In this document: piece by piece, positions 18,790 to 40,630 of the stretch | How positions within the stretch are numbered: the first letter of the stretch is position 1 | Layout of the letters: each line of letters begins with the position of its first letter | Assembly (NCBI GenBank): GCA_033697325.1 | Contig: GCA_033697325.1_4854.1 | DNA from: a phage | Strand: one strand, 5' to 3' | DNA length: 46,335 nucleotides | Position numbers and translations under genes: made by a program | Notes under the pieces: generated by a model | The model's database searches: none | What the model was told of the DNA's origin: nothing | Seen by the model: the letters and a program-made list of their open reading frames with translations, nothing else

Positions 18790-19392
18790 TTAATCATCCA
18801 GTTTAACACCGGGAATCTTGCCTGCTGCGATGGCGTCGTAAATAATTTCGTATTCACTATAAACCCAGTTATCACCCTCATCAGCTTCCTTCTGCATTGC
18901 CTCTATTGCTGCATCTCGCTTTCTTTCTGTTTCTGAATGGGAAGGTCGCAGGAATCTAGCTTCAAAACAACCAAGTCCGTAGCTCATGCGAATAACTGCG
19001 GTATTCTCGACATGAGCAATCACCTCTCCACTTTCACCTTGACCGTACATTAACACTCCGTCAGGGTCTACAATTTCGCAGTGCATTCCAACTGGCGGCA
19101 GACCTTTGCCGTTCCGTGCTGAGTTTTGCGAAGCTGCGAGTGCTGCTTCGTATTGCTTGCGGGTTACGATGCACTCATGCCTGTCATCGGCGAGAATGTC
19201 AATGAATGGGTTGTGCCAATCACCGCTACCCCAATCACCGCCGTACCAGTCTGTTTTTTCTTTGTTCGTATAGACTCCGCTGTGAGAACTAAAGCAAATT
19301 TGAGAGTCAGAATCCTGTACGGCAACTTCAGCAAAATAAGGCCACCCACCACGCTTAGGTAATTCTTGAACTAACAGGTCGATAAGTTTCAT
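18790..19392 (-). CDS. Hypothetical protein (200 aa)
   Basis: SD ggagga; ATGA overlap with the upstream gene. Confidence 0.5.
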   Translation of the reverse strand: MKLIDLLVQELPKRGGWPYFAEVAVQDSDSQICFSSHSGVYTNKEKTDWYGGDWGSGDWHNPFIDILADDRHECIVTRKQYEAALAASQNSARNGKGLPPVGMHCEIVDPDGVLMYGQGESGEVIAHVENTAVIRMSYGLGCFEARFLRPSHSETERKRDAAIEAMQKEADEGDNWVYSEYEIIYDAIAAGKIPGVKLDD

Positions 19393-19598
19393 TTTGTTTC
19401 CTCCACAAACTCAAATTTTGATTCGAATTCCTTTCTGCCAATACAATATTCCATATAAGATTCATTGAACTTTATCATTGGATAGTCAGCAATCAGGATG
19501 TGATTTAACCCTACAGCGGTCACAATGAATCTTGCACCCTCATTCCAATAGTGATAGCTCTTGTAAATGCCACCAACAATTACCTTCTTGTTGCTCAT
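19389..19598 (-). CDS. Hypothetical protein (69 aa)
   Basis: SD gggaga; ATGA overlaps on both sides. Confidence 0.45.
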   Translation of the reverse strand: MSNKKVIVGGIYKSYHYWNEGARFIVTAVGLNHILIADYPMIKFNESYMEYCIGRKEFESKFEFVEETK

Positions 19599-19852
19599 TT
19601 TGTTTCTCCCAATGCTTTGTTGATTGCATCCTGTGCTGATTTAAGCTCTTCTGGGTATGCATCATTCCAGTTTTGCTTATACGCTTTGCTGAGCATTTTC
19701 TGCAAAGCCTCCAGAAGCTCAGGCGCTGCGGCGATGAGGTTGGCATTATCCTTATCGGTAACATCGCACACGAATTGGCCGCCTTTACTATAGACCCCAC
19801 CAAGTTCATCATCGTAATGCCACGACCCCGGGATTCCTTTAAACTCTTTCAT
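19595..19852 (-). CDS. Hypothetical protein (85 aa)
   Basis: SD gtgagg before ATG 19852. Confidence 0.45.
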   Translation of the reverse strand: MKEFKGIPGSWHYDDELGGVYSKGGQFVCDVTDKDNANLIAAAPELLEALQKMLSKAYKQNWNDAYPEELKSAQDAINKALGETK

Positions 19853-19858
19853 GCAACC

Positions 19859-20020
19859 TCACTTAATGTACTCAATAATCTCAACTTCGCGCATCTGCAC
19901 CAGCCCAAATGGCGCAACAACTTTACCGCACGGGAGGATTTTGATTTGCTCAAGACTGAACACTCCGCAGCGTCCGTTTTCTTTGAATTTGACCATTACC
20001 ATGACTTCTTCCTCACTCAT
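19859..20020 (-). CDS. Hypothetical small protein, nearly leaderless
   Basis: ATG about 6 nt downstream of the predicted transcription start of the promoter at 20033-20063. Confidence 0.3.
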   Translation of the reverse strand: MSEEEVMVMVKFKENGRCGVFSLEQIKILPCGKVVAPFGLVQMREVEIIEYIK

Positions 20021-20032
20021 AATTTGATGTAG

Positions 20033-20063
20033 ATACTATGCACCACCACTCAATCTACGTCAA
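20033..20063 (-). promoter_or_regulatory. Leftward promoter with motif pair
   Basis: Minus strand TTGACG, then 17-19 nt, then CATAGT or TAGTAT. Confidence 0.4.
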
Positions 20064-20546
20064 CATTTGTTTCCCATGATTGCTATGAAATCCAAACCGT
20101 CTCTCTGCGTTTTTTCTCGCTGACACCGCAGAATCCTTTGAATCAAATCCGCCAAGGTTAATGTGCTTCCCGTTAACCGTTATCCTTGCAACCCACTTGC
20201 GTCTACTCTTGCACCAATGAACACCAGTCACTCCTGACGTATTCATTCTGTGTGTCTTTTGATTTTTCTGGTTTTCAGCGTGACTCACCAGTCTTAAATT
20301 CTCAATCCTGTTATCAAGCCTGTTATGGTTTATGTGGTCAATCTCCATGCCTTCAGGTATCGGGCCGTTATGCATTTCCCATATGATTCTGTGTGCAAGA
20401 TAGCGCTTACGATTATAGCGAACAATCCTGTATCCGAAATTTGTTACAGAGCCAGCAATGTCTCCGGCTTTTTTAGACGCTAGTGGAGGCATCCTCCATA
20501 GCAGATTGATGCCGTCATAATAGAAAACATCACTCCAATCTTTCAT
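20055..20546 (-). CDS. HNH homing endonuclease with AP2-type DNA-binding domain
   Basis: IDHINHNRLDNRIENLRLVSHAENQ HNH motif; C-terminal GVHWCKSRRKWVARITVNGKHINLGGF AP2-like. SD gggag. Confidence 0.75.
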   Translation of the reverse strand: MKDWSDVFYYDGINLLWRMPPLASKKAGDIAGSVTNFGYRIVRYNRKRYLAHRIIWEMHNGPIPEGMEIDHINHNRLDNRIENLRLVSHAENQKNQKTHRMNTSGVTGVHWCKSRRKWVARITVNGKHINLGGFDSKDSAVSARKNAERRFGFHSNHGKQMLT

Positions 20547-20574: not shown

Positions 20575-20603
20575 AATCTACATCACCAACTTATCTACGT
20601 CAA
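20575..20603 (-). promoter_or_regulatory. Leftward promoter for the HNH gene
   Basis: Minus strand TTGACG, 17-nt spacer, TAGATT; two motif copies. Confidence 0.5.
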
Positions 20604-20620
20604 CACCATTGTGGTAGAAT
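20598..20620 (+). promoter_or_regulatory. Putative rightward promoter for the lysis cassette (divergent from HNH promoter)
   Basis: TAGAAT -10 at 20615-20620, 27 nt upstream of the SD ggacaggagg. Confidence 0.3.
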
Positions 20621-21379: not shown

Positions 21380-21612
21380 AAAAGCTAAGCAACTGGCTGC
21401 TTGGGGCGTGGATTTCATTCTGTTCGCTGTTGCAGCTGTGGCCTGATGCAATGATGCATGTATGGGTAATGATGCCGGATGACCTGAAAGCGGCGCTACC
21501 GCCAGTCGTGGTGAAAGGTGTGAGCTATTCAATCATGCTGGTTGGAGTTCTCGGCAAGATGCACGGCATGAGGAAGGAAAACCGGAGGCTGCGCGATGAT
21601 GGCAAAAGCTAA
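21376..21612 (+). CDS. Small membrane protein in lysis cassette (possible holin or antiholin)
   Basis: 78 aa with two hydrophobic segments; ATGA overlap with the endolysin stop. Confidence 0.4.
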   Translation: MKKLSNWLLGAWISFCSLLQLWPDAMMHVWVMMPDDLKAALPPVVVKGVSYSIMLVGVLGKMHGMRKENRRLRDDGKS

Positions 21613-21985
21613 ATTAATTATAATTCTGCTATTGACCGGTATTGCTATTGGCTCGCTATCATTTGGCGCTGGCTACCTGAAGGGATGGTATGCTCATAGT
21701 GATAAGGTCAATCTTGATGCCGCCAAGCGCAAACAGAACGCGGAGAATAAACAGGCAAAGTCAACCGCGCAATCACAACAGGTGCGCGTGGTGACGGAAA
21801 CTAAATACAAAACCATTTATCGAGATGTGGTGAAATATGTCTCTGACCCGAATCGTACCATTTGCACTTTTGATGATAACTATATCCGGTTGCGCCAATC
21901 AACTCTCAACGCAGACTCAGCCGTCAGCAGAAATGCTGGGGGAGGTGTGCGAATTATCAAAAGTGGCACCGAAAAACAGCGATGA
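21596..21985 (+). CDS. i-spanin (Rz/LysB-like)
   Basis: N-terminal TM helix LIIILLLTGIAIG followed by a charged coiled-coil region; position after endolysin. Confidence 0.55.
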   Translation: MMAKAKLIIILLLTGIAIGSLSFGAGYLKGWYAHSDKVNLDAAKRKQNAENKQAKSTAQSQQVRVVTETKYKTIYRDVVKYVSDPNRTICTFDDNYIRLRQSTLNADSAVSRNAGGGVRIIKSGTEKQR

Positions 21986-22082
21986 GAGCATCGTTATAGA
22001 AAACCAGAATACGGAGTGCGCCACCAAAAGGAAGATGACTATTTACGATTGGCAGGAATGGTATCGTGATAACTTCCAATAA
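21837..22082 (+). CDS. o-spanin (Rz1/LysC-like lipoprotein), overlapping the i-spanin in another frame
   Basis: Signal peptide with lipobox ITISGC; starts inside and extends beyond the i-spanin gene. Confidence 0.55.
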   Translation: MSLTRIVPFALLMITISGCANQLSTQTQPSAEMLGEVCELSKVAPKNSDESIVIENQNTECATKRKMTIYDWQEWYRDNFQ

Positions 22083-22110
22083 AAAAGCCCCGTAATGGGG
22101 CTTTTGTTTT
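22082..22110. terminator. Bidirectional intrinsic terminator
   Basis: A-run, gcccc-gtaat-ggggc hairpin, T-run. Confidence 0.7.
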
Positions 22111-22303
22111 ATGTGAGACTAATAGGATTTAGTTTATCGATAAATACATCGAATTTAACCCATGTTTGGATGTTTCTTCCGTTAGATAAGTGAATCTCGC
22201 ACCCATCACGCCCAGCAAGAGGAGTCACATCTACGATATGTGCCGAGTTTACAATAATTGCCCTGTCTTCAGTTGTAGGCCAAATGGTTAAAAACTCATT
22301 CAT
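22109..22303 (-). CDS. Hypothetical protein (64 aa)
   Basis: SD gaggg before ATG 22303. Confidence 0.45.
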   Translation of the reverse strand: MNEFLTIWPTTEDRAIIVNSAHIVDVTPLAGRDGCEIHLSNGRNIQTWVKFDVFIDKLNPISLT

Positions 22304-22413
22304 AAAGTGCCCTCATTTTATAGCCAAACATCTGCGCATTCTCATGCTCAACGCTACCAGAAAACACCAGATAGCGACGACCACGATTATCCGTAACGAT
22401 GTAGGCGGACGGC

Positions 22414-22722
22414 TCACTCTGCTGGCAATGTTGTTGGCTCATCAACAGATTCCTCGACCGCAGCTTCAACGATGCGCACCAAAGAACACTCAAGGTTCGG
22501 CGCATTATAATTGCCAGCCAGAAACAGCACGCTACCAGTGCTAATCAGCACCTGCTTTGCGTTCGCCTGAGACAGATTCTGCACGATGAATTGCGCTATC
22601 TCGGTGCCGATTTTCAGCACTGCGCTGCCGTCGCTGTTCAGTGATACCAGTTGTGCGGATGTGTCAGTAATGTTGGTGTAGTTCGCGTTTCGTTGCGCGA
22701 TTGTGATGTCGCAGAATGACAT
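22414..22722 (-). CDS. Hypothetical protein (102 aa)
   Basis: SD ggagag; stop/start overlap with the upstream gene. Confidence 0.45.
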   Translation of the reverse strand: MSFCDITIAQRNANYTNITDTSAQLVSLNSDGSAVLKIGTEIAQFIVQNLSQANAKQVLISTGSVLFLAGNYNAPNLECSLVRIVEAAVEESVDEPTTLPAE

Positions 22723-23213
22723 TATTTAATCTCTCCATTCAGTTCATTAACAATTAACGTCGCATAGCCAGCAATATCTTTCCAGCTATCATCATAAGTC
22801 GGGTCGCCATTCAGAATGCGCCCAATCTTGTGCTGAATCATATCGAGTGCCTCGCGTTGGCTTGGTGTGAGATTGTGCCAGCCATCCACTTCGCGCATGA
22901 CGAATTTTAGTTCCTGCATGATGGCTGCGCCATCTTTGAATTTGCCATAGCGGCTACCGCGCTCGGTAATGAGTTGCTCTGTTGCATCCGATTCCGGCGC
23001 GCCAATGCAATCGTTGAGGTCTTGTTCGTCATTCACCGGTATGCGAATAGCAATTACGATATCTCCAGCACCTTCGATGGTGCTGACTTTTCCTACGTAA
23101 TAGTGACCCAGGTAGTAAATTATACCTGTGAGTCCTGACTTAACTACGACGGAAGCCGTTTTATGACCATCAAAATCCTTCTCGCAACCCTTCAGATATT
23201 CCCAATTACTCAT
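22722..23213 (-). CDS. Hypothetical protein (about 163 aa)
   Basis: ATG 23213 with SD ggaga; no family recognised by eye. Confidence 0.5.
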   Translation of the reverse strand: MSNWEYLKGCEKDFDGHKTASVVVKSGLTGIIYYLGHYYVGKVSTIEGAGDIVIAIRIPVNDEQDLNDCIGAPESDATEQLITERGSRYGKFKDGAAIMQELKFVMREVDGWHNLTPSQREALDMIQHKIGRILNGDPTYDDSWKDIAGYATLIVNELNGEIK

Positions 23214-23225
23214 CACTTTCTCCAC

Positions 23226-23435
23226 TTAATCATTTTCGCGTCGCGGCATTGTGACGCGGTTGTATTCATCAACATTAAAATTGGCCCGAATCAAATCATA
23301 CATATCATCCTTTGGCATATCAGCCAGCGCCACATAGCAGCGGGCAAAGTAGCGAACATCACGGAGTGTTAGCGGCTGCCGCTTCTCCACAATACTGGTG
23401 ATAATGTCCATCGGTTCGCGTCGTGGTCTTGGCAT
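23226..23435 (-). CDS. Hypothetical protein (69 aa)
   Basis: SD aaggag before ATG 23435. Confidence 0.45.
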   Translation of the reverse strand: MPRPRREPMDIITSIVEKRQPLTLRDVRYFARCYVALADMPKDDMYDLIRANFNVDEYNRVTMPRREND

Positions 23436-23463
23436 ATTTACTACTCCTTCTCGAAAAACATCT

Positions 23464-23506
23464 TGACGTTTCTACATCACTTAGTCAATACTTATTGATG
23501 TAGATT
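23464..23506. promoter_or_regulatory. Divergent regulatory region with inverted motif pair
   Basis: TTGACG at 23464, tctacatca at 23471-23479, gatgtagatt at 23497-23506; lies between leftward and rightward operons. Confidence 0.35.
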
Positions 23507-23534
23507 GTACCACAACGGAAAAGGTGATGTGGAA

Positions 23535-23732
23535 ATGAGATACAAAGAAATAGCAGCGAGATATCAGAAAGAGGTGCGCGAGGTTATGGAAATCCTTAAC
23601 GTTCGCGAGGATACCATTAAGTTTGTGGAAACTGCCATGTGTTCACTGGCGCTTGAAGCGGAGGTTGCTGGTCGTGAAAAAGCTGACGAACTTATATCTG
23701 CGGTGGTTTATAGTTCAACCAGTAACGGTTGA
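23535..23732 (+). CDS. Hypothetical protein
   Basis: ATG with SD aggtga. Confidence 0.4.
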   Translation: MRYKEIAARYQKEVREVMEILNVREDTIKFVETAMCSLALEAEVAGREKADELISAVVYSSTSNG

Positions 23733-23792
23733 AGATGAAGGTTACCTGTGCGTTGAGCACGTTGTTATTAAATTCTACGGGAGAAATTATAA

Positions 23793-23987
23793 ATGGCGCA
23801 TGACGAACTGTACGAAGAGTCGCTAATCCAGCGACTGAATGAAGTTGATCGTACTCGCGAATGGCTGGAATGTGAGTTGCGGGAAGTGCGCAACAGACTG
23901 CAACGCAAACGCAGCCAGCAAAAAGACGTTATCGACTGGTCAGGTGATACGCCTAAATTTAACAACTTGGGAGAATGGATAAAATGA
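23793..23987 (+). CDS. Hypothetical protein (64 aa)
   Basis: SD gggaga before ATG 23793. Confidence 0.45.
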   Translation: MAHDELYEESLIQRLNEVDRTREWLECELREVRNRLQRKRSQQKDVIDWSGDTPKFNNLGEWIK

Positions 23988-24235
23988 GCGCACCACATAT
24001 GCCGATGATGAATGAACAGGGATTCTTGAGCTGCCCATTCTGTGGTTGTGATGATGTTGGTATTGCCATAGATGAGGATGGGTGGGAATACATAGAATGC
24101 GGAGATTGCTATTGCCGCACAGACGCATTCCGTAACAGAGAGCTAATGACTAAGTCATGGAACACAAGAGGTGGACACCTCTACACCGCAGAAGACTTCA
24201 ATCAGGCAGCAGGGGAACGCGTTCATGGACTATAA
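23984..24235 (+). CDS. Lar-family restriction alleviation protein homolog (intact paralog)
   Basis: SCPFCGCDD...YIECGDCYCRTDAFRNRELMTKSWNTR shows the Lar-like zinc-ribbon pattern; ATGA coupling. Confidence 0.6.
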   Translation: MSAPHMPMMNEQGFLSCPFCGCDDVGIAIDEDGWEYIECGDCYCRTDAFRNRELMTKSWNTRGGHLYTAEDFNQAAGERVHGL

Positions 24236-24713
24236 ATCACAAATCATGCACGTGATTATGATGCATCCCGGCGCAACGCGCGCATATATTGAAAAGCATT
24301 GCGGCGGCAAGCATTCAAGCACAACTACGCATCGTTTGCACGAGATGCTTGCGCTTGGCTTCATTCGGCGCGAGAGGTCAGTGATTCGTGGTGGTAAGTG
24401 GCAGTATAAATATTTCATCTCTGATGATGCCGCAGGCATTGATGATGCAATTAAGTGTTATTTGCTTGATAACGCTGGCGCAGAGGTGAAAGAGATTAGC
24501 ACCGTCACTGGCATTGATTATCGCATCGTGAAAAGCCGCATCCGCATTATGTTTCATAACGGCGACGTGACGCGAAGCTATGACCATCATAAGAAGCTGT
24601 GGCGCTACACATGGAAGGAGCAGGAAGTGAATATGAGCAATCTGTTTAATTCACTTCTTCGCAACGCAAGAGGTCATCATGGGGAAAGCGAAACGCAAGA
24701 AGCAAGAATATGA
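24225..24713 (+). CDS. Hypothetical protein (possible winged-helix DNA-binding)
   Basis: ORF of 162 aa; SD agggga. Confidence 0.45.
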   Translation: MDYKSQIMHVIMMHPGATRAYIEKHCGGKHSSTTTHRLHEMLALGFIRRERSVIRGGKWQYKYFISDDAAGIDDAIKCYLLDNAGAEVKEISTVTGIDYRIVKSRIRIMFHNGDVTRSYDHHKKLWRYTWKEQEVNMSNLFNSLLRNARGHHGESETQEARI

Positions 24714-24838
24714 ACCACTTCCGCCATGCGAAATGTCAGGAATTCCGCAACAGGAGGATGTGATTCTCACCGAAGCTGAATGGCGCAAGGTGGCAAGGGT
24801 GCAAATCATGTTCCGAAAACTTGCTGAGGACGTACTAA

Positions 24839-25351
24839 ATGAGATGGGCTATTAAGCATAAATCTGGCAGAACTCTGTTTGTAACATCGGATGAGTTTAT
24901 TGCCAATAACCGTAGAAAGATGGACTGGATAGTGGAGGAAGTGAAAATGACGAGCAGAGAGCAGTTTGAAGCAAGTTGGTTGCGACGCGGTGGTGAGACA
25001 TCAGACCTTGTCCGTTACCCTGAAAATCACCATGAGGCTGGAAGTGGTAACGTTGGCGGTCAGTACGTACTTGATGATGTACAAGGTCACTGGCAAACGT
25101 GGCAGGCATCACGCGCGGCGATTGAGATTGAGTTGCTTGCCGATAAGCGAAGGATGGACTGGCTGGTATCTAAAGCGGTTAATGTCAGAGAACCAATGGT
25201 TTATGGAAGTCACAGCATGTTTTGGTCTCAAGCCATCACGGATGAAGAAGATGATTATTACGTAACTAAACTACGTGAACAAATCGACGTAGCTATGGAA
25301 TCTGAGAAGCAATCCTCACATCTTGAATCCGTATTAAAGGTGAAAAAATGA
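24839..25351 (+). CDS. Hypothetical protein
   Basis: ORF of 170 aa; SD gagga; internal repeat MDWIVEE / MDWLVSK. Confidence 0.5.
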   Translation: MRWAIKHKSGRTLFVTSDEFIANNRRKMDWIVEEVKMTSREQFEASWLRRGGETSDLVRYPENHHEAGSGNVGGQYVLDDVQGHWQTWQASRAAIEIELLADKRRMDWLVSKAVNVREPMVYGSHSMFWSQAITDEEDDYYVTKLREQIDVAMESEKQSSHLESVLKVKK

Positions 25352-25674
25352 TCATCCCATTAAACGACATTATGAAGGCAGACATCATTCAACTCGAAGA
25401 TTATGATATGCAACTGGCGTTTGAAATCGAAACCGTTGAGCGGCAACTGCAATATGCTGACAAGAAGAATGACCGCGTATGGCATGAGAAAGCACTTAAG
25501 GCGCGCGACCACATGAAGCGCACGCGAGCACTTATTAAAACTCGTCTGGATAAGCTGTATTACGGCGAAGAAAGGATGCTTCACGGGGCGATTCTTGCGC
25601 AAATACGCAAGGAAATGCCTATTGGCAAGTTCATGTCATATGTTCATCGCGCAAAACAGGAGGCTGGGTTATGA
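25348..25674 (+). CDS. Hypothetical protein
   Basis: ORF of 108 aa; ATGA coupling. Confidence 0.5.
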   Translation: MIIPLNDIMKADIIQLEDYDMQLAFEIETVERQLQYADKKNDRVWHEKALKARDHMKRTRALIKTRLDKLYYGEERMLHGAILAQIRKEMPIGKFMSYVHRAKQEAGL

Positions 25675-25859
25675 GTGAGCCAAAATTTCCAGAGCTGCCT
25701 GTTGAGGTTCAGGTTGCATTGATTAATGCAGCAAGTGCAATGGCGACAAAGAAGATTGAGGCAATAGGCAGTGATTACAACAGGAACATAGACTGGTTTC
25801 AGAGGGAGTATCAAAAAATCTGCGACGCACTCTACAAAGAAAACAGGGGTAGACCATGA
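25671..25859 (+). CDS. Hypothetical protein
   Basis: ORF of 62 aa; ATGA coupling. Confidence 0.4.
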   Translation: MSEPKFPELPVEVQVALINAASAMATKKIEAIGSDYNRNIDWFQREYQKICDALYKENRGRP

Positions 25860-26196
25860 TTCCATTAGTGTGGATATTATCAGCCTACGCATTCGCGAGG
25901 GTATTTGAGGCTGACACTCTGTACCAGGTGATTTGCTATGGCGTTCTGTTCTGCCTTTCAGGCGCTGCGATCGCATTTATGGATGATGTGATTTCAGACT
26001 AACTCCGTATATCTTTTGTTCATCATGGGCTGCTATCATTTAATCAGGAGGTAGCCCATGAATATAATCCCTATCACTTACTTTCTCACGCTATACGCAC
26101 TCACCGACTCGCCATTATTTGCGCTAGCTACCGCCTCATGGTGCTATATCTCCCTGTGTTATAATTCGACCACAAACTAACCGTGGAGAGTTAACC

Positions 26197-28076
<1,880 letters not shown>

Positions 28077-29417: not shown

Positions 29418-29440
29418 AAGCCCTCGATTGAGGGCTTGTC
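29418..29440. terminator. Bidirectional intrinsic terminator
   Basis: aagccctc-gatt-gagggctt hairpin; T-rich on the minus strand after the PP-loop gene stop. Confidence 0.55.
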
Positions 29441-29441
29441 A

Positions 29442-30254: not shown

Positions 30255-30287
30255 GTCCGTCGCTCCTTTCTTATATCTACATCACTC

Positions 30288-30316
30288 ATATTGCGGTCAT
30301 TAGGTATCTACGTCAA
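30288..30316 (-). promoter_or_regulatory. Leftward promoter for PP-loop gene with motif pair
   Basis: Minus strand TTGACG, 17-nt spacer, CAATAT; motif copies at 30275-30284 and 30306-30315. Confidence 0.35.
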
Positions 30317-30358
30317 TATTTATTATAAACAAAACACCTAGTCAGGGTCTTTTGATTG

Positions 30359-30901
30359 CTACAGACGCATAGGCATAACAACAATCTTCGCAGTCTCGCC
30401 AGATGGCGCGCTAAGGCAGCAAACTGCGGCATTTGTGTTTCCATTCAGTTCAAACTTAACGCTACTGAATTTATGGTTAAACAGCTTCGCCACTTTCTCA
30501 ATATCAACAAGGTAGCCAGCATTGAAGCCAATTTCCTCTGTTGGTAAGGTCTGCTTCGGTATAACACGATCAATATCAGGGAATCGACCATCAATCTCTT
30601 CACAGATACCAGCGCCCACAATTGTGTCCATATGGCCAAAATGATAGGTAACGATTCCAGATTTTGTATCGATTATCGCATGGTTATATTTCTTTGTCGG
30701 AGACTTGCTGACCTTTACAATTATATTTTCAGCAATCTCGTTGTCATGACCGCCACCAATGAATGCGCGATGACCGTCAGTTGACGCAATGCGACCATCA
30801 GTCATGAAGCAGATGCCGTTCAGGTAGTAGCGCGCATCATTGCGCGCCTGAAATATTAATGCTGACTCAAGTAATAATTTGCTGATTTTTAGTTTCATCA
30901 T
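30359..30901 (-). CDS. Truncated DNA polymerase III beta sliding clamp (DnaN) homolog: domain II plus C-terminal half of domain III
   Basis: DARYYLNG...ASTDGHRA, DGRFPDIDRVIPK, EEIGFNAGYLVD and C-terminal IVVMPMRL line up with E. coli DnaN residues about 130-366 as recalled from memory. Domain I is absent. Confidence 0.65.
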   Translation of the reverse strand: MMKLKISKLLLESALIFQARNDARYYLNGICFMTDGRIASTDGHRAFIGGGHDNEIAENIIVKVSKSPTKKYNHAIIDTKSGIVTYHFGHMDTIVGAGICEEIDGRFPDIDRVIPKQTLPTEEIGFNAGYLVDIEKVAKLFNHKFSSVKFELNGNTNAAVCCLSAPSGETAKIVVMPMRL

Positions 30902-31071
30902 TTCACCTTAATCATGTGCTGTTTTGCAACCTTCAGGCATTCTTCAAAAATGCCACCTTTCTTAGCGCTCTGATTGCGCTTGTAATACTGAATTGCCGCA
31001 TCAATTGCCATCTGGTCGATATCAGGCAGCTTGGTGCGAAGTTGTTTTTCGATGAATTGTTCTGGTGTCAT
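30898..31071 (-). CDS. Hypothetical small protein (57 aa)
   Basis: Translationally coupled on both sides; below the ORF track cutoff. Confidence 0.4.
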   Translation of the reverse strand: MTPEQFIEKQLRTKLPDIDQMAIDAAIQYYKRNQSAKKGGIFEECLKVAKQHMIKVK

Positions 31072-31880
31072 CACATCTTCTCCAGAATTGCCATAACCTC
31101 GTGAATGTCAGCAACAGGAATCTGGATAAATTCCTCATCCTCTGCCACAACATGGCCAGCAGGTAGAATCACGTGTTCTGCCGGCTTCAATAACTCAATC
31201 AGGCGGTCTACTGGCTTAATCTTTTTCGACTTCAGCACTTTTGCTGTGACCTTGTCTTTGCCTTGCGCCTTCGCTTCTTCCACGGCCTCGTCGATAACTT
31301 TTACCGCATCATCGCCATGCTCGCGCGTTACTGCTACGGCATTTGCATAGCTGATTTGTCCGGCACTGATGCGCGCTTTCACTTCCGCTGGCACATCACC
31401 CAGCGACAGGTGCATTTGCACGTCAGATACTGAGCGACCTACCTTTTTGGCTATTTCCTCGTTGGTCCAGCCAAATCCTTTCAGTCGCGTGTAAGCCTTT
31501 GCGCGCTCAAACGGGTCAAGTTGCTTGCCCTGACTTGATGACACCATGAAGGCGATTTTGTCCGCCTCGTCGCCAGTGAAATCCTTACATTCAATGCGAA
31601 CGATTGGCGCACCACGCTCAATGGCACGCAATGCGCCGAGATAGCGGTGCTGACCGTCAAGAATGCGGATTCCCTTCTCATCTGGAATAACTGTTAACGC
31701 TGGTAATGGCTGACCGGACTCCCAGCACTGCGCGAAATATTCGACATGCTGTTCATCTGCTTCACGGATGTTGTATCCCGGCTCAAGATAGATTTGCTCC
31801 ACTGGAACGAGATAGGTTTTGTTTACCGCGATGCCGTTGCGCGTCTCTTTGTCTGAATAGATTTTGCTGAGTGTTTTCAT
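31071..31880 (-). CDS. DGQHR-domain / ParB-like protein with HTH
   Basis: Exact DGQHR motif in IRILDGQHRYLGAL; HTH-like WTNEEIAKKVGRSVSDVQMHL; SD aagga. Confidence 0.7.
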   Translation of the reverse strand: MKTLSKIYSDKETRNGIAVNKTYLVPVEQIYLEPGYNIREADEQHVEYFAQCWESGQPLPALTVIPDEKGIRILDGQHRYLGALRAIERGAPIVRIECKDFTGDEADKIAFMVSSSQGKQLDPFERAKAYTRLKGFGWTNEEIAKKVGRSVSDVQMHLSLGDVPAEVKARISAGQISYANAVAVTREHGDDAVKVIDEAVEEAKAQGKDKVTAKVLKSKKIKPVDRLIELLKPAEHVILPAGHVVAEDEEFIQIPVADIHEVMAILEKM

Positions 31881-31883
31881 TGT

Positions 31884-32063
31884 TTATCCTTGAAATCCAT
31901 GTGAGTAAGCATAGTTATATGCATCTTCTGAGTTATCAAAATATTCATAATCAGTCCATCCATCGCGAATAAACTGGCAGCACCAGTGGGCTGGAATGCC
32001 TTCGTCTGATGCTTGATAAAAAACATCAACAACCACAACTTCTGTTTCACCTTCCATTTTCAT
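31884..32063 (-). CDS. Hypothetical small acidic protein
   Basis: First gene of the leftward island operon; ATG 32063 with SD agaggtg. Confidence 0.4.
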   Translation of the reverse strand: MKMEGETEVVVVDVFYQASDEGIPAHWCCQFIRDGWTDYEYFDNSEDAYNYAYSHGFQG

Positions 32064-32098
32064 CACCTCTAACATTTATTGTTGTTTCTACGTCACTA

Positions 32099-32127
32099 AC
32101 TATAAACACCTCATCAATCTACGTCAA
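32099..32127 (-). promoter_or_regulatory. Leftward promoter for the island operon
   Basis: Minus strand TTGACG, 17-nt spacer, TATAGT; motif copies at 32086-32095 and 32117-32126. Confidence 0.5.
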
Positions 32128-32144
32128 CAGGAATATGCTAAAAT
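32122..32144 (+). promoter_or_regulatory. Rightward extended -10 promoter
   Basis: TGcTAAAAT at 32136-32144. Confidence 0.4.
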
Positions 32145-34531: not shown

Positions 34532-34534
34532 ATA

Positions 34535-34556
34535 AAGCCGCATAAAGCGGCTTTTA
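34535..34556. terminator. Bidirectional intrinsic terminator
   Basis: agccgc-ataaa-gcggct hairpin then tttt; also sits right after the tRNA 3' end on the minus strand. Confidence 0.6.
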
Positions 34557-34559
34557 ATT

Positions 34560-34636
34560 TGGTGGACACGGACGGATTTGAACCTTCAATCAGCCGATTA
34601 TGAGTCGGTTGCTTTAACCAATTAAGCTACGCGTCC
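34560..34636 (-). tRNA. tRNA with CAU anticodon (elongator Met or lysidine-modified Ile2; not initiator-like)
   Basis: 77-nt cloverleaf folded by hand: 7-bp acceptor stem including one GU, D-arm with GG, anticodon loop CUCAUAA, T-loop GGTTCAAATCC, discriminator A, encoded CCA. G1-C72 pair argues against initiator. Confidence 0.75.
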
Positions 34637-34660
34637 ATAAGTGCTGGTTTAAGCATTGCC

Positions 34661-34726
34661 AGCGTGCTTTCTTAATATCCAGCCCCGTAACCCATACATA
34701 CCCCTATATATGATTGCGATAATGCT
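34661..34726. repeat. 13-bp perfect inverted repeat (cttaatatccagc / gctggatattaag) with 40-nt loop
   Basis: Lies in the non-coding stretch between the tRNA and the leftward promoter at 35067-35095. Confidence 0.5.
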
Positions 34727-35066
34727 GGATATTAAGTGTTGTGGCGTTTCGCGATTAACTGAAACTGGCATAACAATGGATGCAAACCTATCCAAATAAT
34801 CAAGATGGCATTACCACAACGGAAAGAGCACTGGCTAACCAAGCGCGCCGACTCTTCACGATTATCGACTCAATGCTCTTACCTGTTGTGTGCCCATTAT
34901 TAATCACACCGGGCCAGTGCGCCGAATTTGTTTACAAGGAATCGGAAGACCTTGCTGACTTACAGGCTATTACGCCGCCATCAGAACAACATCATCGTTT
35001 GCATTTATCTTTGTGGTCAGTTTCTAAAAAGTCCGCAAAGTCGCTCACGAAAACTATCTGAAATAC

Positions 35067-35095
35067 AATCTACACCACAAAATAATCACTGTCAA
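35067..35095 (-). promoter_or_regulatory. Leftward promoter pointing at the non-coding region and tRNA
   Basis: Minus strand TTGACA, 17-nt spacer, TAGATT. Confidence 0.5.
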
Positions 35096-35867: not shown

Positions 35868-35896
35868 GAAAAAGCCCCGAAAGGGGCTTTGTTTTA
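35868..35896. terminator. Bidirectional intrinsic terminator
   Basis: agcccc-gaaa-ggggct hairpin with A-run before and T-run after. Confidence 0.65.
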
Positions 35897-36100
35897 TTCT
35901 TGTGGTGGTTCCGGTAGTGGCATCCAGTGGGTCACATTAACTTCATCATAATATGATTGGTCGTAAGAATAAATATCCCAACTAACATGCTCTCCATATC
36001 GTAGATAAAAGCCTTCATGAACTTGCTTTAAATTATCGTAAACAATTACATCCTCGCCTTCTTCAGGCATTCGCTCACTACACTTAATCCACTGGCTCAT
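35894..36100 (-). CDS. DUF551-like phage protein
   Basis: MSQWIKC..ERMPEEGE...THWMPLPEPP hallmark as recalled; ATGA coupling. Confidence 0.5.
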   Translation of the reverse strand: MSQWIKCSERMPEEGEDVIVYDNLKQVHEGFYLRYGEHVSWDIYSYDQSYYDEVNVTHWMPLPEPPQE

Positions 36101-36429
36101 AATTTATCCTCATTCATTTCCAGAAAGACAATCATGGCAGCGCGGAGTGGGTTTGTATCGAATGTTGTCTCTCCACCTTGACCATCTGCAAACCATATAT
36201 CTCGATGGGCGCTTGGGATTACCGATATAAAATTATTTGTAATAATCGGCCATGCATCAGCTGGGTTGTTGCATGGGTCAAACTTTCGCTTAATATTTTT
36301 GTCATCAAAAAAGAAGAATCCATCGGAACATATGTGAGCCAACCCACCATTGGGGCAAAGGTTACTACTAACAAAAAAGAAAACCTTTTGCGCTATTTCC
36401 AAGTCACTCATATCTTCATAATTTTTCAT
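36097..36429 (-). CDS. Hypothetical protein (110 aa)
   Basis: SD aaggtga; ATGA coupling. Confidence 0.45.
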   Translation of the reverse strand: MKNYEDMSDLEIAQKVFFFVSSNLCPNGGLAHICSDGFFFFDDKNIKRKFDPCNNPADAWPIITNNFISVIPSAHRDIWFADGQGGETTFDTNPLRAAMIVFLEMNEDKL

Positions 36430-36569
36430 ATCACCTTATCCTCATCAAAAATCACACCAATCACACGAAGCAAATCTTTCGCCATGCGCTCTGCTTCTTC
36501 GTAATCGTAACCTGCATCGACATACAAATCAGTATAAAAAATCAAGTCAGCTTTTGTTTGTTCGTTCAT
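36426..36569 (-). CDS. Hypothetical small protein (47 aa)
   Basis: ATGA coupling at both ends; found by reading. Confidence 0.35.
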   Translation of the reverse strand: MNEQTKADLIFYTDLYVDAGYDYEEAERMAKDLLRVIGVIFDEDKVI

Positions 36570-36760
36570 TTTTTATCGTCACTCTTAACTAATGCCCAAA
36601 CAAGCGCCGCAACCCAGCCAATAAAACTCCATCCTACAAGAATATTCAGCACACAGATTGCTGTCGTGTTTGTGTGCTTTCTTTGCAATGCCACAAATGA
36701 TGGGAGAAGATAAGCAAATACAACAAACCCAGCGAAAAGCAACAAAATAACAACATCCAT
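36566..36760 (-). CDS. Small membrane protein (64 aa, two TM helices)
   Basis: SD gaggtga; hydrophobic segments. Confidence 0.45.
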   Translation of the reverse strand: MDVVILLLFAGFVVFAYLLPSFVALQRKHTNTTAICVLNILVGWSFIGWVAALVWALVKSDDKK

Positions 36761-36795
36761 AACTCACCTCAGTCATATCTCGTTTCGATGACTTG

Positions 36796-36824
36796 AATCT
36801 ACATCACCGCCTAGCAGGTGTCAA
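36796..36824 (-). promoter_or_regulatory. Leftward promoter for accessory operon
   Basis: Minus strand TTGACA, 17-nt spacer, TAGATT; motif at 36797-36806. Confidence 0.5.
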
Positions 36825-36844
36825 CACCACTGAGATGATATAAT
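36819..36844 (+). promoter_or_regulatory. Rightward extended -10 promoter
   Basis: TGaTATAAT at 36836-36844. Confidence 0.45.
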
Positions 36845-37581: not shown

Positions 37582-39953
37582 TGGCTGAAGAAGTCGGCGG
37601 AATTGTCTATGAAGTCGGGATGGATGTTAAAGGCCTGAAAGCTGGCGCGACAACAGCCAATAAGACTTTGGACGACCTTGAATCATCAACCAACAAAACC
37701 ACAAATGCGCTTGGCAAGTTGGATAAAAACGCCAGAAATGCTGGCAACGGGATGAAGAATGCTGGCGGCGCAGCTTCAGGGCTTAAAACCAGCATGTCGA
37801 TGCTTGCTGGCGCAATATCCGTGTCACTGATTATCGAATGGGGCAAGCGATTCCTTGAGGTTGCCGATAACATGACACAGCTTCAGGCAAGGATAAAAAG
37901 GTTAACAGGAGATGCTGAGACCGCGAAGGAAACCTTCAATTCGCTGACAAACATCGCCTCAACCACTGGCGCAAGCCTAAGTGATACCACGGGGCTGTGG
38001 GAAACATTGACGTCATCACTGAAAGAGGCAGGCGCGACAAATGCGCAGGTTCTTAACCTTACAGATACCCTGCAAAAAATAGGTAGAATCGGCGGGTCAT
38101 CAACCGAAGAAATGGCGAACGCATTACGTCAGTTCGGTCAGTCAATCGCATCTGGCACAATCCGCGCCGAAGAATTTAACTCCATCCTTGAACAGATGCC
38201 TGAACTTGCACGCCAGATAGCCGCTGGACTTGGCATTTCAATGGGTGAACTTCGCGCCAGAATGCTTGACGGAAAACTGACGGCGGAAGATGCGCTAAAT
38301 GCCATTCAGGACAGAACAAGCGTAGTTAACGCTGAGTTCGCAAAACTACCGCGCTCTATATCTCAGGCGACTGGTAGTCTTGAAACATCATTTGCAAAAA
38401 TGATAGCAAGCATAAACGACGCAACAGGAGCTAGTTCTGCCTTCGTTTCAGTTATTGACTCTATTACCTCAGCAATCAACAGACTAACTGGTCAAACTGT
38501 AAGTGCGGCAGAGGTTATTTCTGATTTGACGTCAACTGCCGAAATGTTCAGTCGCAGGGCGAGAACTTGGTCATGGGTTGGCATTGACGGATGGGCGGCA
38601 CAAAATCAGGCAATAGCCGCGGTAGCAAATCAGGCTGCAACTTTGGTTTCAGACATGGATGCCGTAACGAAGTCAACAGGAGAAGCAGCAGAAGCGCAGG
38701 CGCATTTGACAGTGCCGCAAACACCACCAAAGGACGGGAAAGGAAAGGGCAAAAGCGCCGAAGAGAGACAAGCTGAATCAGTAGCTGAAAAGCTGGAAAA
38801 ATTACGCCAGCAAACCATGCTCAATGCCACATCTACCAGCGAACTATCACGCGAGCAAGCAATTCTCAATGCGCAGCAATCGCTTGGCAAGGCCGCCACT
38901 CAGGAGCAAATAAAACTGGCTGGCGAGTACGCTGCGAAGATTTGGGACCAGAAAAATGCACTGAAGGAGCAGGCGGAAGCGGAGAAAGAAAGGCAGCGCG
39001 TAGAAAAATCATATCAGGGATTACGTGCCATTGCGTCACCAACGACTGGCATTGACAGTGAATACCAGCAACGCATGGCTGACCTTGATGCCTACGCCGC
39101 AGCATATCCGCAAAAAATCACGGAGATTGAACAGACTCGCTCAGCAATAGAGGCTCAGTACCGCCAGCAACGAATTGATGCCATGTGGGCTGAATGGCAG
39201 CAACAAAGCCTCGGTGCGCAACTGTTCGGCACCGCGCTTGATTCAGCAATGAGCACAGCATCAAACAGCATAACCGGATTGTTGACAGGCACAATGAGCG
39301 TTCAGGATGCCATGCGCAGTCTCGGCTCTACGGTGCTGAACTCTCTGGTAAACAGTTTCGTCGAAATGGGCGTGCAGTGGGTAAAATCTGCGGTCATGGG
39401 ACAGACTGCACAGGTTGCGGCTACAGCAACTACAACGGCGGCGCAAACGGCAGGACTGGCAACCACAACAGCAGCATCCACTGCGGCGGCAGCCACCACC
39501 ACGGCGGCATGGACTCCTGCGGCGATCGTAGCATCAATCGGCTCATTCGGTGGGGCGGCTGCAATTGGGGTTGGTGCCGTTCTAGGGGCGCTGGCGATGG
39601 GTATTGCTGGAAAGCGTAAAAATGGCGGCCCAGTTAGCGCAGGAAGTATGTACGAAGTTGGCGAGGGAAACGCACCAGAAATATTCCAGGCAAGCACAGG
39701 CAGGCAATACATGATACCTGGTAACTCAGGAAAGGTTATCAGCAATAAGGATATTTCCGGTGGAGGTGGCGGAGTTGTGGTTTATAATAATGTTTACAAT
39801 AATTCAAGCAATGCCAGCGCAACAAGCAGAGCCACTGATAACGGTGATGGTTCGATAACTATTGAGACATTTATATCCGATATGAATGAAGGCGGACCGA
39901 TGAGCCAATCTATCTCAAGGAACTTTAATACCAACAGGAGAGCAACCGAATAA
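37581..39953 (+). CDS. Tail tape measure protein
   Basis: 790 aa, alpha-helical Ala/Thr/Gln-rich, lambda-family tape-measure-like N-terminus; TAATG junction. Confidence 0.85.
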   Translation: MAEEVGGIVYEVGMDVKGLKAGATTANKTLDDLESSTNKTTNALGKLDKNARNAGNGMKNAGGAASGLKTSMSMLAGAISVSLIIEWGKRFLEVADNMTQLQARIKRLTGDAETAKETFNSLTNIASTTGASLSDTTGLWETLTSSLKEAGATNAQVLNLTDTLQKIGRIGGSSTEEMANALRQFGQSIASGTIRAEEFNSILEQMPELARQIAAGLGISMGELRARMLDGKLTAEDALNAIQDRTSVVNAEFAKLPRSISQATGSLETSFAKMIASINDATGASSAFVSVIDSITSAINRLTGQTVSAAEVISDLTSTAEMFSRRARTWSWVGIDGWAAQNQAIAAVANQAATLVSDMDAVTKSTGEAAEAQAHLTVPQTPPKDGKGKGKSAEERQAESVAEKLEKLRQQTMLNATSTSELSREQAILNAQQSLGKAATQEQIKLAGEYAAKIWDQKNALKEQAEAEKERQRVEKSYQGLRAIASPTTGIDSEYQQRMADLDAYAAAYPQKITEIEQTRSAIEAQYRQQRIDAMWAEWQQQSLGAQLFGTALDSAMSTASNSITGLLTGTMSVQDAMRSLGSTVLNSLVNSFVEMGVQWVKSAVMGQTAQVAATATTTAAQTAGLATTTAASTAAAATTTAAWTPAAIVASIGSFGGAAAIGVGAVLGALAMGIAGKRKNGGPVSAGSMYEVGEGNAPEIFQASTGRQYMIPGNSGKVISNKDISGGGGGVVVYNNVYNNSSNASATSRATDNGDGSITIETFISDMNEGGPMSQSISRNFNTNRRATE

Positions 39954-39954
39954 A

Positions 39955-39982
39955 AAGAAGCCCCTTATGGGGCTTTGTTTTA
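39955..39982. terminator. Bidirectional intrinsic terminator
   Basis: aagcccc-ttat-ggggctt hairpin with A-run and T-run. Confidence 0.65.
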
Positions 39983-40630
39983 AATCTTATCAGCGCATTT
40001 ACGTACGACCCTCGGTATCGTTTCTTTCAGTTCATCCCATGAGTTGACCGCTTCCATATCCAGAAGTGTGACAAGAGACTTCTGGATATCACTGCGTAAC
40101 TGGTTAGTTTTTGCATCCTGAGAGTCCCATGTGTCAAACCCAGTAACTTCACGGATATCTATCGACTCCTTGACTGACTTTGCCACCTGAATGAAATGCC
40201 CACTATGACCAATTCTACCCTCAGTACGTTCAAGCATTCTGCTGACGGCAGCATTAAGTTCCACGAAACTTACCGCACCAATATTTCGCAACTCAACCTG
40301 TCTCTGCGTAATGAATCGGTCGATGACAAGGAAATGGAAATATGTGCTGTATTGCTCTGCTATATATACAGCCAGATGCAAGCAAGCAAAAGTGGAACCA
40401 TTCCTGCCTCGCGTTGATTTTATTGCGCTATCGATACCAAGTTGCTTTTCGCACTCAGCCTTGAAATCCTTAAATGCATCAGTTGCCATTACCTGTCGTA
40501 TTTCTCTTGTCCTCATCCCATTATCCAGTCTCCAGCGGTTCATCTGGTTAACAAGCTCATTAACGTTAATAAAATTTTCACGGTCGAAAGTGATCTCTCC
40601 GTACGGAAACTCTAATGTTTGCAGTTTCAT
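39980..40630 (-). CDS. KilA-N domain protein (antirepressor/kil-like accessory gene)
   Basis: N-terminal FINVNEL...NGSTFACLHLAVYIAEQYS resembles KilA-N; SD aggaga. Confidence 0.5.
   Translation of the reverse strand: MKLQTLEFPYGEITFDRENFINVNELVNQMNRWRLDNGMRTREIRQVMATDAFKDFKAECEKQLGIDSAIKSTRGRNGSTFACLHLAVYIAEQYSTYFHFLVIDRFITQRQVELRNIGAVSFVELNAAVSRMLERTEGRIGHSGHFIQVAKSVKESIDIREVTGFDTWDSQDAKTNQLRSDIQKSLVTLLDMEAVNSWDELKETIPRVVRKCADKI

Follow-up and report, generated by a model that had tools for sequence, protein, structure and literature searches.

As Juhala et al. reportedly described in 2000, morons of lambdoid phages are genes that lie as insertions among the late genes and have a promoter and a terminator of their own. 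In the early/late switch of phage φ29, protein p4 represses A2b and A2c and activates A3 at divergent promoters, and KorB of plasmid RK2 is a ParB-family global repressor at many operator sites. In T4-type phages, hyperplastic regions contain cassettes marked by PeSL, a repeated motif made of a σ70-like early promoter and a stem-loop terminator (Arbiol et al. 2010, PMC2839356; Comeau et al. 2014, PMC4122927). Recombination between PeSL copies gives rise to mini-circles. Here we analyzed 46,335 nucleotides (nt) of phage DNA (contig GCA_033697325.1_4854.1), referred to as the window, in which rightward structural genes are interrupted by leftward units. We consider it likely that these units occupy fixed slots as independent transcription units, in which conserved small genes are combined with exchangeable cargo under shared promoter and terminator elements.

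A preliminary description of the window had placed five leftward blocks within a structural module at 18790-40630, and the gene map has all five where they were expected. They do interrupt the structural genes, as rightward structural and lysis genes are split by them between 18.7 and 40.7 kb, and the pattern goes well beyond what chance would give. The rightward blocks come in the order of portal and head morphogenesis; lysis; small genes, capsid decoration and major capsid; head-tail; tail tube; tape measure; and distal tail. Leftward genes make up 32% of 18790-40630. Beyond the five blocks listed below, there are further leftward units, namely an HNH unit, a NinC sub-unit within the island, and a tRNA-Met unit.

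18790-20020, minus strand: unit C1, four genes
22109-23435, minus strand: unit C2, five genes, including a gene of 48 amino acids (aa) at 22296-22442 that overlaps its neighbor
29442-32075, minus strand: the island, two units, one with NinC and the other with a clamp-like gene, a 58-aa gene, a ParB gene and a 63-aa gene
35894-36760, minus strand: unit C3, four genes
39980-40630, minus strand: unit C4, one gene

The cassette genes have a median length of 85 aa. Their GC content is 0.444 (0.391 in C3) vs 0.495 in the structural core, and GC at third codon positions is 0.450 vs 0.516. The genes had been described as chained by ATGA start/stop overlaps; start and stop codons share 4 nt at 7 of the 12 internal junctions, as ATGA at six and as GTGA at one. 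Recognizable products are more than the few reported earlier. Domain matches above threshold were obtained for HNH_3, DUF6378, PAPS_reduct (in NinC), HTH_ParB/KorB, DUF551, NinX and Imm_superinfect, and a clamp-like protein shows below-threshold similarity to DNA polymerase III β. The KilA-N product named earlier is C4_216, the similarity of which lies below the Pfam threshold. The genes are as follows.

18790-19392, minus strand: C1_200, a 200-aa mosaic protein, phrog_7798
19389-20020, minus strand: small C1 genes of 69 aa (C1_69), 85 aa (C1_85, phrog_1273) and 53 aa (C1_53), with ATGA overlaps
20055-20546, minus strand: HNH homing endonuclease (Pfam HNH_3, E=5e-25) with its own putative promoter, a cargo insertion
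22109-23225, minus strand: distal C2 genes of 64, 48, 102 and 167 aa, the last with DUF6378
23226-23435, minus strand: C2_69, the first gene of C2, universal and lineage-restricted, with a winged-helix-like fold
29442-30254, minus strand: NinC gene, PAPS-reductase-like (Pfam PAPS_reduct), in a unit reaching 30316
30359-32075, minus strand: island core, with a clamp-like protein of 180 aa, I_58, a ParB/KorB-family protein and the 63-aa tip gene
31071-31880, minus strand: the ParB/KorB-family protein, with an N-terminal ParB domain and a helix-turn-helix (HTH) domain
34534-35095, minus strand: tRNA-Met unit, with the tRNA at 34560-34636
35894-36760, minus strand: C3 genes for DUF551, a NinX-family protein, C3_47 (acidic, 47 aa) and Imm_superinfect (a membrane protein), all three internal junctions being ATGA overlaps
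39980-40691, minus strand: C4_216 (216 aa) with its promoter region, sub-threshold KilA-N similarity

Judged from its sequence, the window belongs to the Skatevirus cluster of siphoviruses (Skatevirus, Shuimuvirus and Roufvirus) and comes from a virulent phage; the group is described as virulent, and no genes for lysogeny were seen. At 18-41 kb, it has ~90% nucleotide identity to ASO78B, swi2, IME207, Sf11, Akira, SeSz-2, seszw and BASEL phages Bas77-81. Despite this identity, alignment coverage against these siphoviruses is only 65-79%, a first hint of mosaic content. The BASEL paper treats the group as Skatevirus and relatives, which are small, O-antigen-dependent siphoviruses (PMC11990801). 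A capsid-protein search returned 158 phage records with at least 90% identity and 45 records with 60-80% identity, the latter being Klebsiella and Vibrio relatives at the Roufvirus level.

Conservation was examined in loci from IMG/VR, 73 of them surrounding the capsid gene and 34 the tail-tube gene. The total of ~100 loci falls into two clades, a close one (capsid identity at least 90%) and a Roufvirus-level one (capsid ~79%). Each slot was delimited by flanking core genes, S1-S4 being the slots of C1-C4, and gene presence was scored by tblastn inside the homologous slot. Greedy calling of the longest open reading frames (ORFs) missed C1_85 and C1_53, which are shadowed by longer antisense ORFs, and was replaced by tblastn; the family counts are rough. 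The slots are present in essentially every locus, and their lengths vary widely, 213-2607 nt at S1, 1309-5920 nt at the island, 669-1429 nt at S3 and 8-1043 nt at S4. Presence of the window's genes in the close and Roufvirus-level loci is listed here.

C2_69: close 37/37, Roufvirus-level 26/26
C3_47: close 42/42, Roufvirus-level 27/27
ParB-like: close 38/39, Roufvirus-level 28/28
I_58: close 39/39, Roufvirus-level 27/28
C1_53: close 28/35, Roufvirus-level 0/26
Clamp-like: close 36/39, Roufvirus-level 15/28
C2_167: close 22/37, Roufvirus-level 21/26
C1_200: close 25/35, Roufvirus-level 11/26, at only 32-40% identity
DUF551: close 35/42, Roufvirus-level 0/27
Imm: close 28/42, Roufvirus-level 1/27
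NinX: close 14/42, Roufvirus-level 11/27
HNH at S1: close 3/35, Roufvirus-level 0/26
C1_69: close 2/35, Roufvirus-level 0/26
I_63: close 2/39, Roufvirus-level 1/28
C4_216: close 5/14, no Roufvirus-level loci spanning the slot
NinC: close 0/39, Roufvirus-level 0/28
C2_64: close 0/37, Roufvirus-level 0/26
C2_102: 28/37, in the close clade only

By this table, every slot keeps a conserved frame and one or two conserved genes, and the rest of its content is fluid cargo. C1_53 is, by its sequence distribution, the conserved member of the C1 slot, and C2_64 is unique to the window phage among the relatives sampled (0/63). S4 is empty in seszw and holds an endonuclease in Bas80. In rough clustering, minus-strand ORF families number 30 at S1, 37 at S2, 57 at the island, 24 at S3 and 5 at S4, many of them singletons. 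The preliminary description had regarded the cassettes as accessory. Much of their content is variable indeed, but the slots, their control elements and one or two genes per slot are conserved. Since no cassette gene has a known structural role, the units are not conserved core genes with known structural roles.

The last point bears on another explanation, in which the leftward blocks are core morphogenesis or assembly genes that happen to be on the other strand, making the interruption only apparent. The slots do lie between structural genes, and some slot genes are universal and kept in minimal genomes. However, the cassette proteins match HNH, ParB, DUF551, NinX, NinC, Imm and DUF6378, and no structural family was found among their matches. 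Their genes are mostly small and variable, with many deletable, S4 can be empty, and the promoter class described below is common to small-gene units outside the structural region, at 10822 and 14600. We hold this explanation to be highly improbable.

The control elements were searched for at both ends of the units. Generic σ70 matches are not enriched in the window (36 vs 31.3 expected), and a generic scan was therefore not used as promoter evidence. A position weight matrix trained on six promoters was overfitted, recovering its own training sites alone, and a core 9-mer and alignment footprints were used instead. A promoter family TTGACR-N17-TAGATT, extended as gtgTTGAC[G/A]tagat...gatgTAGATT, has 8 sites vs 0.7 expected, and five of the 8 are at leftward 5′ ends (20063, 20603, 32127, 35095 and 36824), with another directed rightward at 10822. 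The core 9-mer, TGAYGTAGA, has 14 copies vs 0.49 expected, all intergenic. The predicted promoters and control regions are listed below.

20035-20063, minus strand: promoter module B, predicted to drive C1, TTGACGtagat-N-CATAGT, identical to the single promoter of HNH-less relatives
20575-20603, minus strand: leftward promoter module A with two 9-mers, back-to-back with a rightward promoter
20612-20620, plus strand: rightward extended -10 TGgTAGAAT of the lysis genes, in the divergent control region 20575-20620
23436-23534, unstranded: control region of C2 and the rightward R genes, with inverted 9-mers at 23471-23479 (minus) and 23496-23504 (plus) and overlapping promoter candidates in both directions
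30276-30316, minus strand: NinC promoter-like module with two 9-mers
32087-32144, unstranded: island control region, with leftward TTGACG-N17-TATAGT at 32099-32127, 9-mers at -35 and +1, and rightward extended -10 TGcTAAAAT
35067-35095, minus strand: tRNA-Met promoter
36796-36824, minus strand: C3 leftward promoter TTGACA-N17-TAGATT, with a 9-mer at the -10 position
36836-36844, plus strand: C3 rightward extended -10 TGaTATAAT, back-to-back with the leftward promoter in region 36796-36844
10822-10850, plus strand: rightward promoter-plus-leader module in the AT-rich main control region, outside 18790-40630, heading a small-gene run

The 9-mer is at the -35 position for C1 and the island, at the -10 position for HNH, C3 and 10822, and at the +1 position for the island and NinC. 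It also occurs as inverted pairs in the C2 region and at 20025/20054, and in reverse orientation within a rightward promoter at 14600-14640. Because its position and orientation vary, we regard it as operator-like, and infer that it is an operator coordinating the leftward units. Its density is 2.4-2.7 copies per 10 kb in both clades, with the copies lying at four shared divergent junctions and nearly all facing left; these junctions carry it in 78 close and 29 Roufvirus-level loci. The complete seszw genome contains 11 copies vs 0.6 expected at homologous junctions, and has a homologous tandem pair that matches the 10822 module with the same 17-nt spacing. Promoters 10822 (plus) and 36824 (minus) are followed by a common 5′ untranslated region, TCATCGAAAC[A/G]AGA (10851-10880 and 36761-36795), so that the repeated unit is a promoter-plus-leader module of ~60 nt, more than two hexamers.

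The junctions themselves are conserved in sequence. At S3, 62 distinct sequences from both clades share two invariant blocks, TGAYGTAGATT, which is the leftward -10, and ATTATA.CAT, which is the reverse complement of the rightward extended -10, ATG.TATAAT. S3 has the rightward extended -10 in 69/69 loci; at S1 it is seen in 29/35 loci of the close clade, and at the island in 28/28 loci of the Roufvirus-level clade, with a background of 0.13. The 9-mers of the island junction are conserved in both clades, and so is the footprint of the C2 (S2) junction, a differently organized bidirectional control region. At C4, the promoter region (to 40691) contains a 26-bp palindrome at 40660-40685, the half-site of which, ATGTAGAAT, resembles the 9-mer. 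This palindrome (AAATTCTACATTCAAATGTAGAATTT, with perfect 10-bp arms) overlaps the predicted promoter of C4 and has the appearance of a classical operator, which may serve autoregulation by the KilA-N-like product. As for this product, its 'amidase' label (phrog_6095) was considered and found unsupported, with no match in a PDB sequence search. The earlier proposal that each cassette is framed by a promoter can be kept for most 5′ ends, where one predicted promoter family recurs, but C2 and C4 are atypical. Several of these promoters and terminators are already annotated in the GenBank record of ASO78B, and we found no transcriptomics, proteomics or promoter descriptions in the literature on Skatevirus, Roufvirus and Shuimuvirus.

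At the other end of the units, GC-rich hairpins with 8-10 bp stems are located exactly at the convergent junctions, and they are the strongest hairpins in the region. Terminator-like sites are enriched (31 vs 18.9 ± 4.6 expected; 14 vs 7.4 ± 2.6). The hairpins are similar to one another, with the form AAAGCCCC-loop-GGGGCTTT.

18691-18713, unstranded: hairpin at the junction of the head-morphogenesis gene and C1, scoring on both strands, 9-bp stem with 5 GC pairs, in 54/61 relatives
22083-22105, unstranded: hairpin at the junction of the lysis genes and C2, 10-bp stem, in 63/63 relatives
29418-29437, minus strand: terminator ending the NinC unit and the island, 8-bp stem with 5 GC pairs
34534-34554, minus strand: terminator of the tRNA-Met unit
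35871-35890, unstranded: bidirectional terminator between the major tail protein gene and C3, scoring on both strands, the bidirectional form in 69/69 relatives
39957-39976, unstranded: bidirectional terminator between the tape-measure gene and C4, the hairpin in 14/14 relatives spanning the slot

Most hairpins have an A-run before and a T-run after the stem, and should therefore act bidirectionally. The proposed framing by terminators agrees with these predictions, as a strong hairpin is found at every convergent end, mostly with the bidirectional signature.

Put together, the elements suggest how the units could work. The 5′ end of each slot lies in a divergent control region, where the predicted promoter TTGACR-N17-TAGATT is directed leftward and contains TGAYGTAGA once or twice. 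This leftward promoter stands back-to-back, at S1, the island and S3, with the rightward extended -10 that would start the next structural block. The hairpin at the 3′ end of a slot would end the leftward unit and, in most slots, the preceding rightward block as well. Host RNA polymerase would transcribe the leftward units early from their consensus promoters, and the hairpins would insulate them from the structural blocks. Moreover, the shared promoter and terminator elements could provide microhomology for cargo exchange.

Dispensability could be examined in a relative. Yuan et al. reduced the genome of the Skatevirus seszw by iterative CRISPR deletion (CiPGr), and 53 of 81 genes were removable, the smallest viable genome being 36,655 bp (PMC9825161). 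Their deletion cassettes left aside annotated structural genes, genes known to be essential and probable regulatory elements (PMC9825161). The seszw capsid protein is 96.6% identical to that of the window, and we mapped the window's genes onto three deposited mutant genomes of seszw. Orthologues of the clamp-like gene, I_58, C1_85 (gene 72), the lipoprotein and all four homing endonucleases are deleted in reduced clones; that of R_180 is deleted in both reduced clones, and those of R_64, R_Lar, R_170 and C2_102 are deleted in the smallest clone only. Retained are the orthologues of C1_53 (gene 73), C2_69, and the ParB-like gene with its upstream neighbor, and at S3 DUF551-like, C3_47 and seszw gene 31. 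When four retained segments (C1_53, C2_69, ParB-like and the S3 genes) were queried, all four were present in 59 of 60 listed genomes of the seszw lineage, down to 36.5 kb. Retention agrees with comparative conservation for C2_69, C3_47, ParB and C1_53, but not for I_58, which is near-universal yet deleted. The cargo of the cassettes was dispensable in seszw, where its orthologues were deleted, but the orthologues of C1_53, C2_69, ParB-like and C3_47 persisted in 59/60.

These results also bear on the view taken in the preliminary description, that the cassettes are purely dispensable accessory islands, or morons, with unknown genes mainly for anti-defense or host takeover. The variable cargo, the lower GC content of the cassettes and the deletion of cargo in seszw mutants fit this view. 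So do the presence of Imm_superinfect, NinC and NinX, the 'anti-restriction' family at the seszw island tip, and C1_200, which is hypervariable and mosaic, as is often the case for host-interaction proteins. On the other hand, every major slot has genes universal across two clades, and the orthologues of these genes, except I_58, persisted in 59/60 genomes of the seszw lineage, including the smallest.

The anti-defense part of this view was checked with PADLOC, and the ten cassette proteins examined gave no meaningful match, only a weak SspD/BrxP similarity for NinC. Bas77-81 are markedly sensitive to restriction-modification systems and Old (PMC11990801), and a retron preprint reports the sensitivity of Bas81 only, with no gene mapped. 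Accessory or host-interaction families among the cargo include Imm_superinfect, NinC, NinX, DUF551 and homing endonucleases. Imm_superinfect is the only candidate within the cassettes, and its function is exclusion, not anti-defense. Relatives carry a PHROG-labeled 'anti-restriction' family and methyltransferases, and the Lar-like gene of the window is on the plus strand outside the cassettes. Some cargo may well act in host takeover, exclusion or counter-defense, but an anti-defense role of the cassettes is suggested neither by the phenotypes of relatives nor by PADLOC. Altogether, the view of purely dispensable islands with mainly anti-defense or host-takeover genes appears rather unlikely to us.

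C1_200 has 2,749 homologues, in which invariant termini and an invariant linker surround two segments, each with several unalignable versions. Its AlphaFold2 (AF2) model shows small β-barrel modules with moderate confidence (mean predicted local distance difference test, pLDDT, of 71.6). Fold matches are generic small β-barrels of SH3, Tudor or KOW type, and full-length matches are uncharacterized phage proteins only. The promoter-proximal tip of the island is a hot spot, with the 63-aa gene in the window, phrog_14587 'anti-restriction' in seszw (L111/30L 8128-8406) and C1_85-like genes of 114-115 aa in many relatives, the island tips of Bas80 and ASO78B having been examined. The seszw tip gene persisted in all reduced genomes examined.

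How cargo moves can be seen at two places, as insertion endpoints coincide with a shared element at S1 and the NinC junction only. In HNH-less relatives, S1 has a single promoter, whose upstream flank corresponds to module A of the window and whose core and leader correspond to module B. This hybrid single module shows that the HNH insert of 540 bp has TTGACGTAGAT at each of its two boundaries. In four relatives, four unrelated first genes directly follow the conserved S1 promoter and leader. A degenerate copy of the island terminator precedes the NinC unit, which brings along a promoter-like module and a strong terminator of its own. The NinC protein is 65-68% identical to P22-like NinC, and 97-99% identical versions are found only in EcoIv28_Lewi and AB4P2. 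From these sequence arrangements, the repeated promoter element may serve as a recombination boundary for cargo exchange. The moving cargo consists of homing endonucleases, NinC, NinX, DUF551, the superinfection-immunity protein and the mosaic 200-aa protein, with methyltransferases in relatives.

Since endonucleases are part of the cargo, one could imagine that the pattern is mainly due to homing endonucleases inserting among the structural genes along with neighboring DNA, the other small ORFs being passengers or decayed remnants. Three endonuclease genes are present in the window (HNH at 20055-20546, and T5orf172-like at 16525-17817 and 44617-45492), the four of seszw could all be deleted, and members of the HNH family are found in four different slots. 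However, most slots in most relatives are without an endonuclease, which is a rare cargo (3/61 at S1), and slot positions, promoters and terminators are fixed across two clades. We give this origin of the units hardly any credence.

The two T5orf172-like genes are paralogues, at 16525-17817 (plus) and 44617-45492 (minus), with repeated CxxC-rich modules and a T5orf172-like C-terminus. The former lies between the portal and head-morphogenesis genes and overlaps both, and the latter comes after the large distal tail gene, behind its own hairpin at 44608-44629. Their seszw homologue (gene 67) is at the portal position and deletable.

The conserved slot genes are probably regulatory, and two of them were examined more closely. 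C2_69 forms 75 clusters at 90% identity, and among 1.8 billion clusters it has no more than 15 representatives. Its AF2 model is confident (mean pLDDT of 88.6), and 24 of its positions are invariant. Its top structural neighbors are mostly winged-helix DNA-binding domains with template modeling (TM) scores of 0.6-0.68, none of which is significant (best E ~0.6). The ParB-like protein matches Spo0J (1vz0) over residues 40-202 (E=6.6e-13) and Pfam HTH_ParB (E=2.5e-11), with weaker matches to Noc and KorB (weak for PDB 8qa8). No recurring palindrome was found in the genome as a parS-like site or operator for this protein. The only 16-bp perfect palindrome, at 27342-27357, was considered as parS and rejected, being absent from the Roufvirus-level clade (0/29).

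We conceived that TGAYGTAGA could be bound by a phage regulator, with C2_69 and the ParB/KorB-family protein as the best candidates, that would flip the junctions from leftward to rightward transcription in a toggle like that of φ29 p4. As a consensus leftward promoter abuts a -35-less rightward promoter at the 9-mer, one protein could repress the left and activate the structural block. Such a toggle would explain why the leftward slots keep their place at the beginning of structural blocks throughout the lineage, and why the 9-mer is found at -35, -10 or +1 and in both orientations. It is a speculative idea, which we think has a small chance of being right.

Several points weigh against fixed slots with shared control and exchangeable cargo as we propose them. 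First, the 9-mer may be conserved merely as part of paralogous promoter modules without any regulator binding, C2 and C4 are without the canonical promoter module, and promoter activity, timing and termination are all inferred from sequence. Second, the numbers of families per slot were obtained with a crude ORF picker, so some ORFs are probably spurious, and only 5 of 146 families are found in more than one slot, which leaves little inter-slot movement. Third, persistence in reduced genomes is not proof of essentiality, and one of the 60 genomes of the seszw lineage lost one of the four segments.

Other regions of the window resemble the slots or adjoin them. The large terminase (13054-14583) is ~61-62% identical to that of seszw, whereas the adjacent portal (15165-16589) is 97% identical, making a sharp mosaic boundary at the terminase-portal slot. 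The gap between them, 14584-15164, is another slot, with leftward genes in seszw (gene 62) and Bas80 (genes 5 and 6) and none in the window. In the window it contains a rightward promoter candidate TTGACC-N17-TAGTAT with two reverse-oriented copies resembling the 9-mer, which would drive a 68-aa HTH-looking gene at 14659-14865. The tRNA-Met unit has an untranslated leader of ~420 nt (34637-35066, minus), and a search of the whole window with Rfam returned the tRNA only, with no known RNA family for the leader. In relatives, this slot holds tRNA-Arg and tRNA-Ser (ASO78B) or a homing endonuclease (seszw gene 26).

Among the rightward genes, the spanin pair at 21596-22082 (129 aa, in which a lipoprotein of 81 aa is embedded) has counterparts in only 2/26 close and 4/22 distant relatives, unlike the holin and endolysins, which are universal; the spanin module has been replaced. 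The run of ten small rightward genes upstream of the capsid module (23505-26180, plus) is also accessory in part. Two of them, a restriction-alleviation gene of Lar type (23975-24235) and a winged-helix gene resembling MarR (24171-24713), occur universally in relatives, yet their orthologues could be deleted in seszw; R_170 and R_62, both small rightward genes, are rare. Three iteron-like repeats, (C/A)GGGAAATAG(G/T)(A/G), are located at 10420-10560 in an AT-rich region (GC 0.37) that separates the leftward replication arm from the rightward arm and may be a replication origin or a regulatory region.

If our proposal of fixed slots is right, the architecture is reusable, with fixed landing pads where cargo is exchanged without disturbing virion genes and with a few tiny conserved genes. 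The phage group is abundant (~158 deposited genomes with capsid identity of at least 90%) and is often proposed for therapy or biocontrol. For phage engineering, the slots would then indicate payload insertion sites and small ORFs to leave in place. Fast-evolving cargo could be screened for exclusion or counter-defense, with C1_200, NinC, DUF551, NinX, Imm and C4_216 as candidates. No current view is overturned by the finding.

In the literature on this phage group, we found no description of the slot architecture, the shared 9-mer, the core gene of each slot or promoter-bounded exchange. The likeness to φ29 is a functional analogy only, consisting of a consensus promoter back-to-back with a -35-less promoter within ~50 bp and a short repeated element. 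There is no sequence or protein homology, protein binding to the 9-mer is conjectural here, and several junctions are involved here, in contrast to one control region in φ29. As with KorB, the universal island protein is a full-length ParB-family protein and a short element recurs at many promoters, but the 9-mer lacks the palindromic form of the KorB operator or parS, and a link between the ParB-like protein and the 9-mer is pure conjecture.

Likeness to morons is greatest for the NinC unit (29418-30316), which has its own promoter-like module and terminator, is absent from 67/67 relatives at that position and is homologous to a gene of P22-like phages. By sequence, the promoter modules at 20063, 20603, 30316, 32127, 35095 and 36824 and the 3′ hairpins are also moron-like, and the cassette genes are compositionally distinct from their flanks. 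The sporadic presence of morons fits the cargo (NinC, C2_64, HNH and C4_216), but not the slots, C2_69, C3_47, ParB and I_58. Most units here are multi-gene operons with fixed positions and conserved members, not single sporadic insertions, and because the window phage is virulent, the prophage expression of lambdoid morons is inapplicable.

The units resemble PeSL cassettes in that ORFs are interspersed among conserved core blocks, and in that endpoints of insertion or replacement are at a repeated motif, here with the HNH insert at TTGACGTAGAT and unrelated genes after a conserved promoter. They differ in several respects. The promoter and hairpin are at opposite ends of a unit instead of in one composite motif, and a conserved rightward promoter accompanies the leftward one. 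Units and core genes use opposite strands here, and the phage is a siphovirus of 46 kb. PeSL ORFs are non-essential; here the seszw mutants have lost orthologues of the cargo, but in 59/60 genomes one or two genes of each slot are still present, and each slot holds a universally conserved gene that in most slots is kept in reduced genomes. The kind of arrangement is thus already known from morons and from PeSL or hyperplastic regions, and our proposal, if true, would extend shuffling mediated by regulatory elements from T4-like myoviruses and lambdoid prophages to small virulent siphoviruses.

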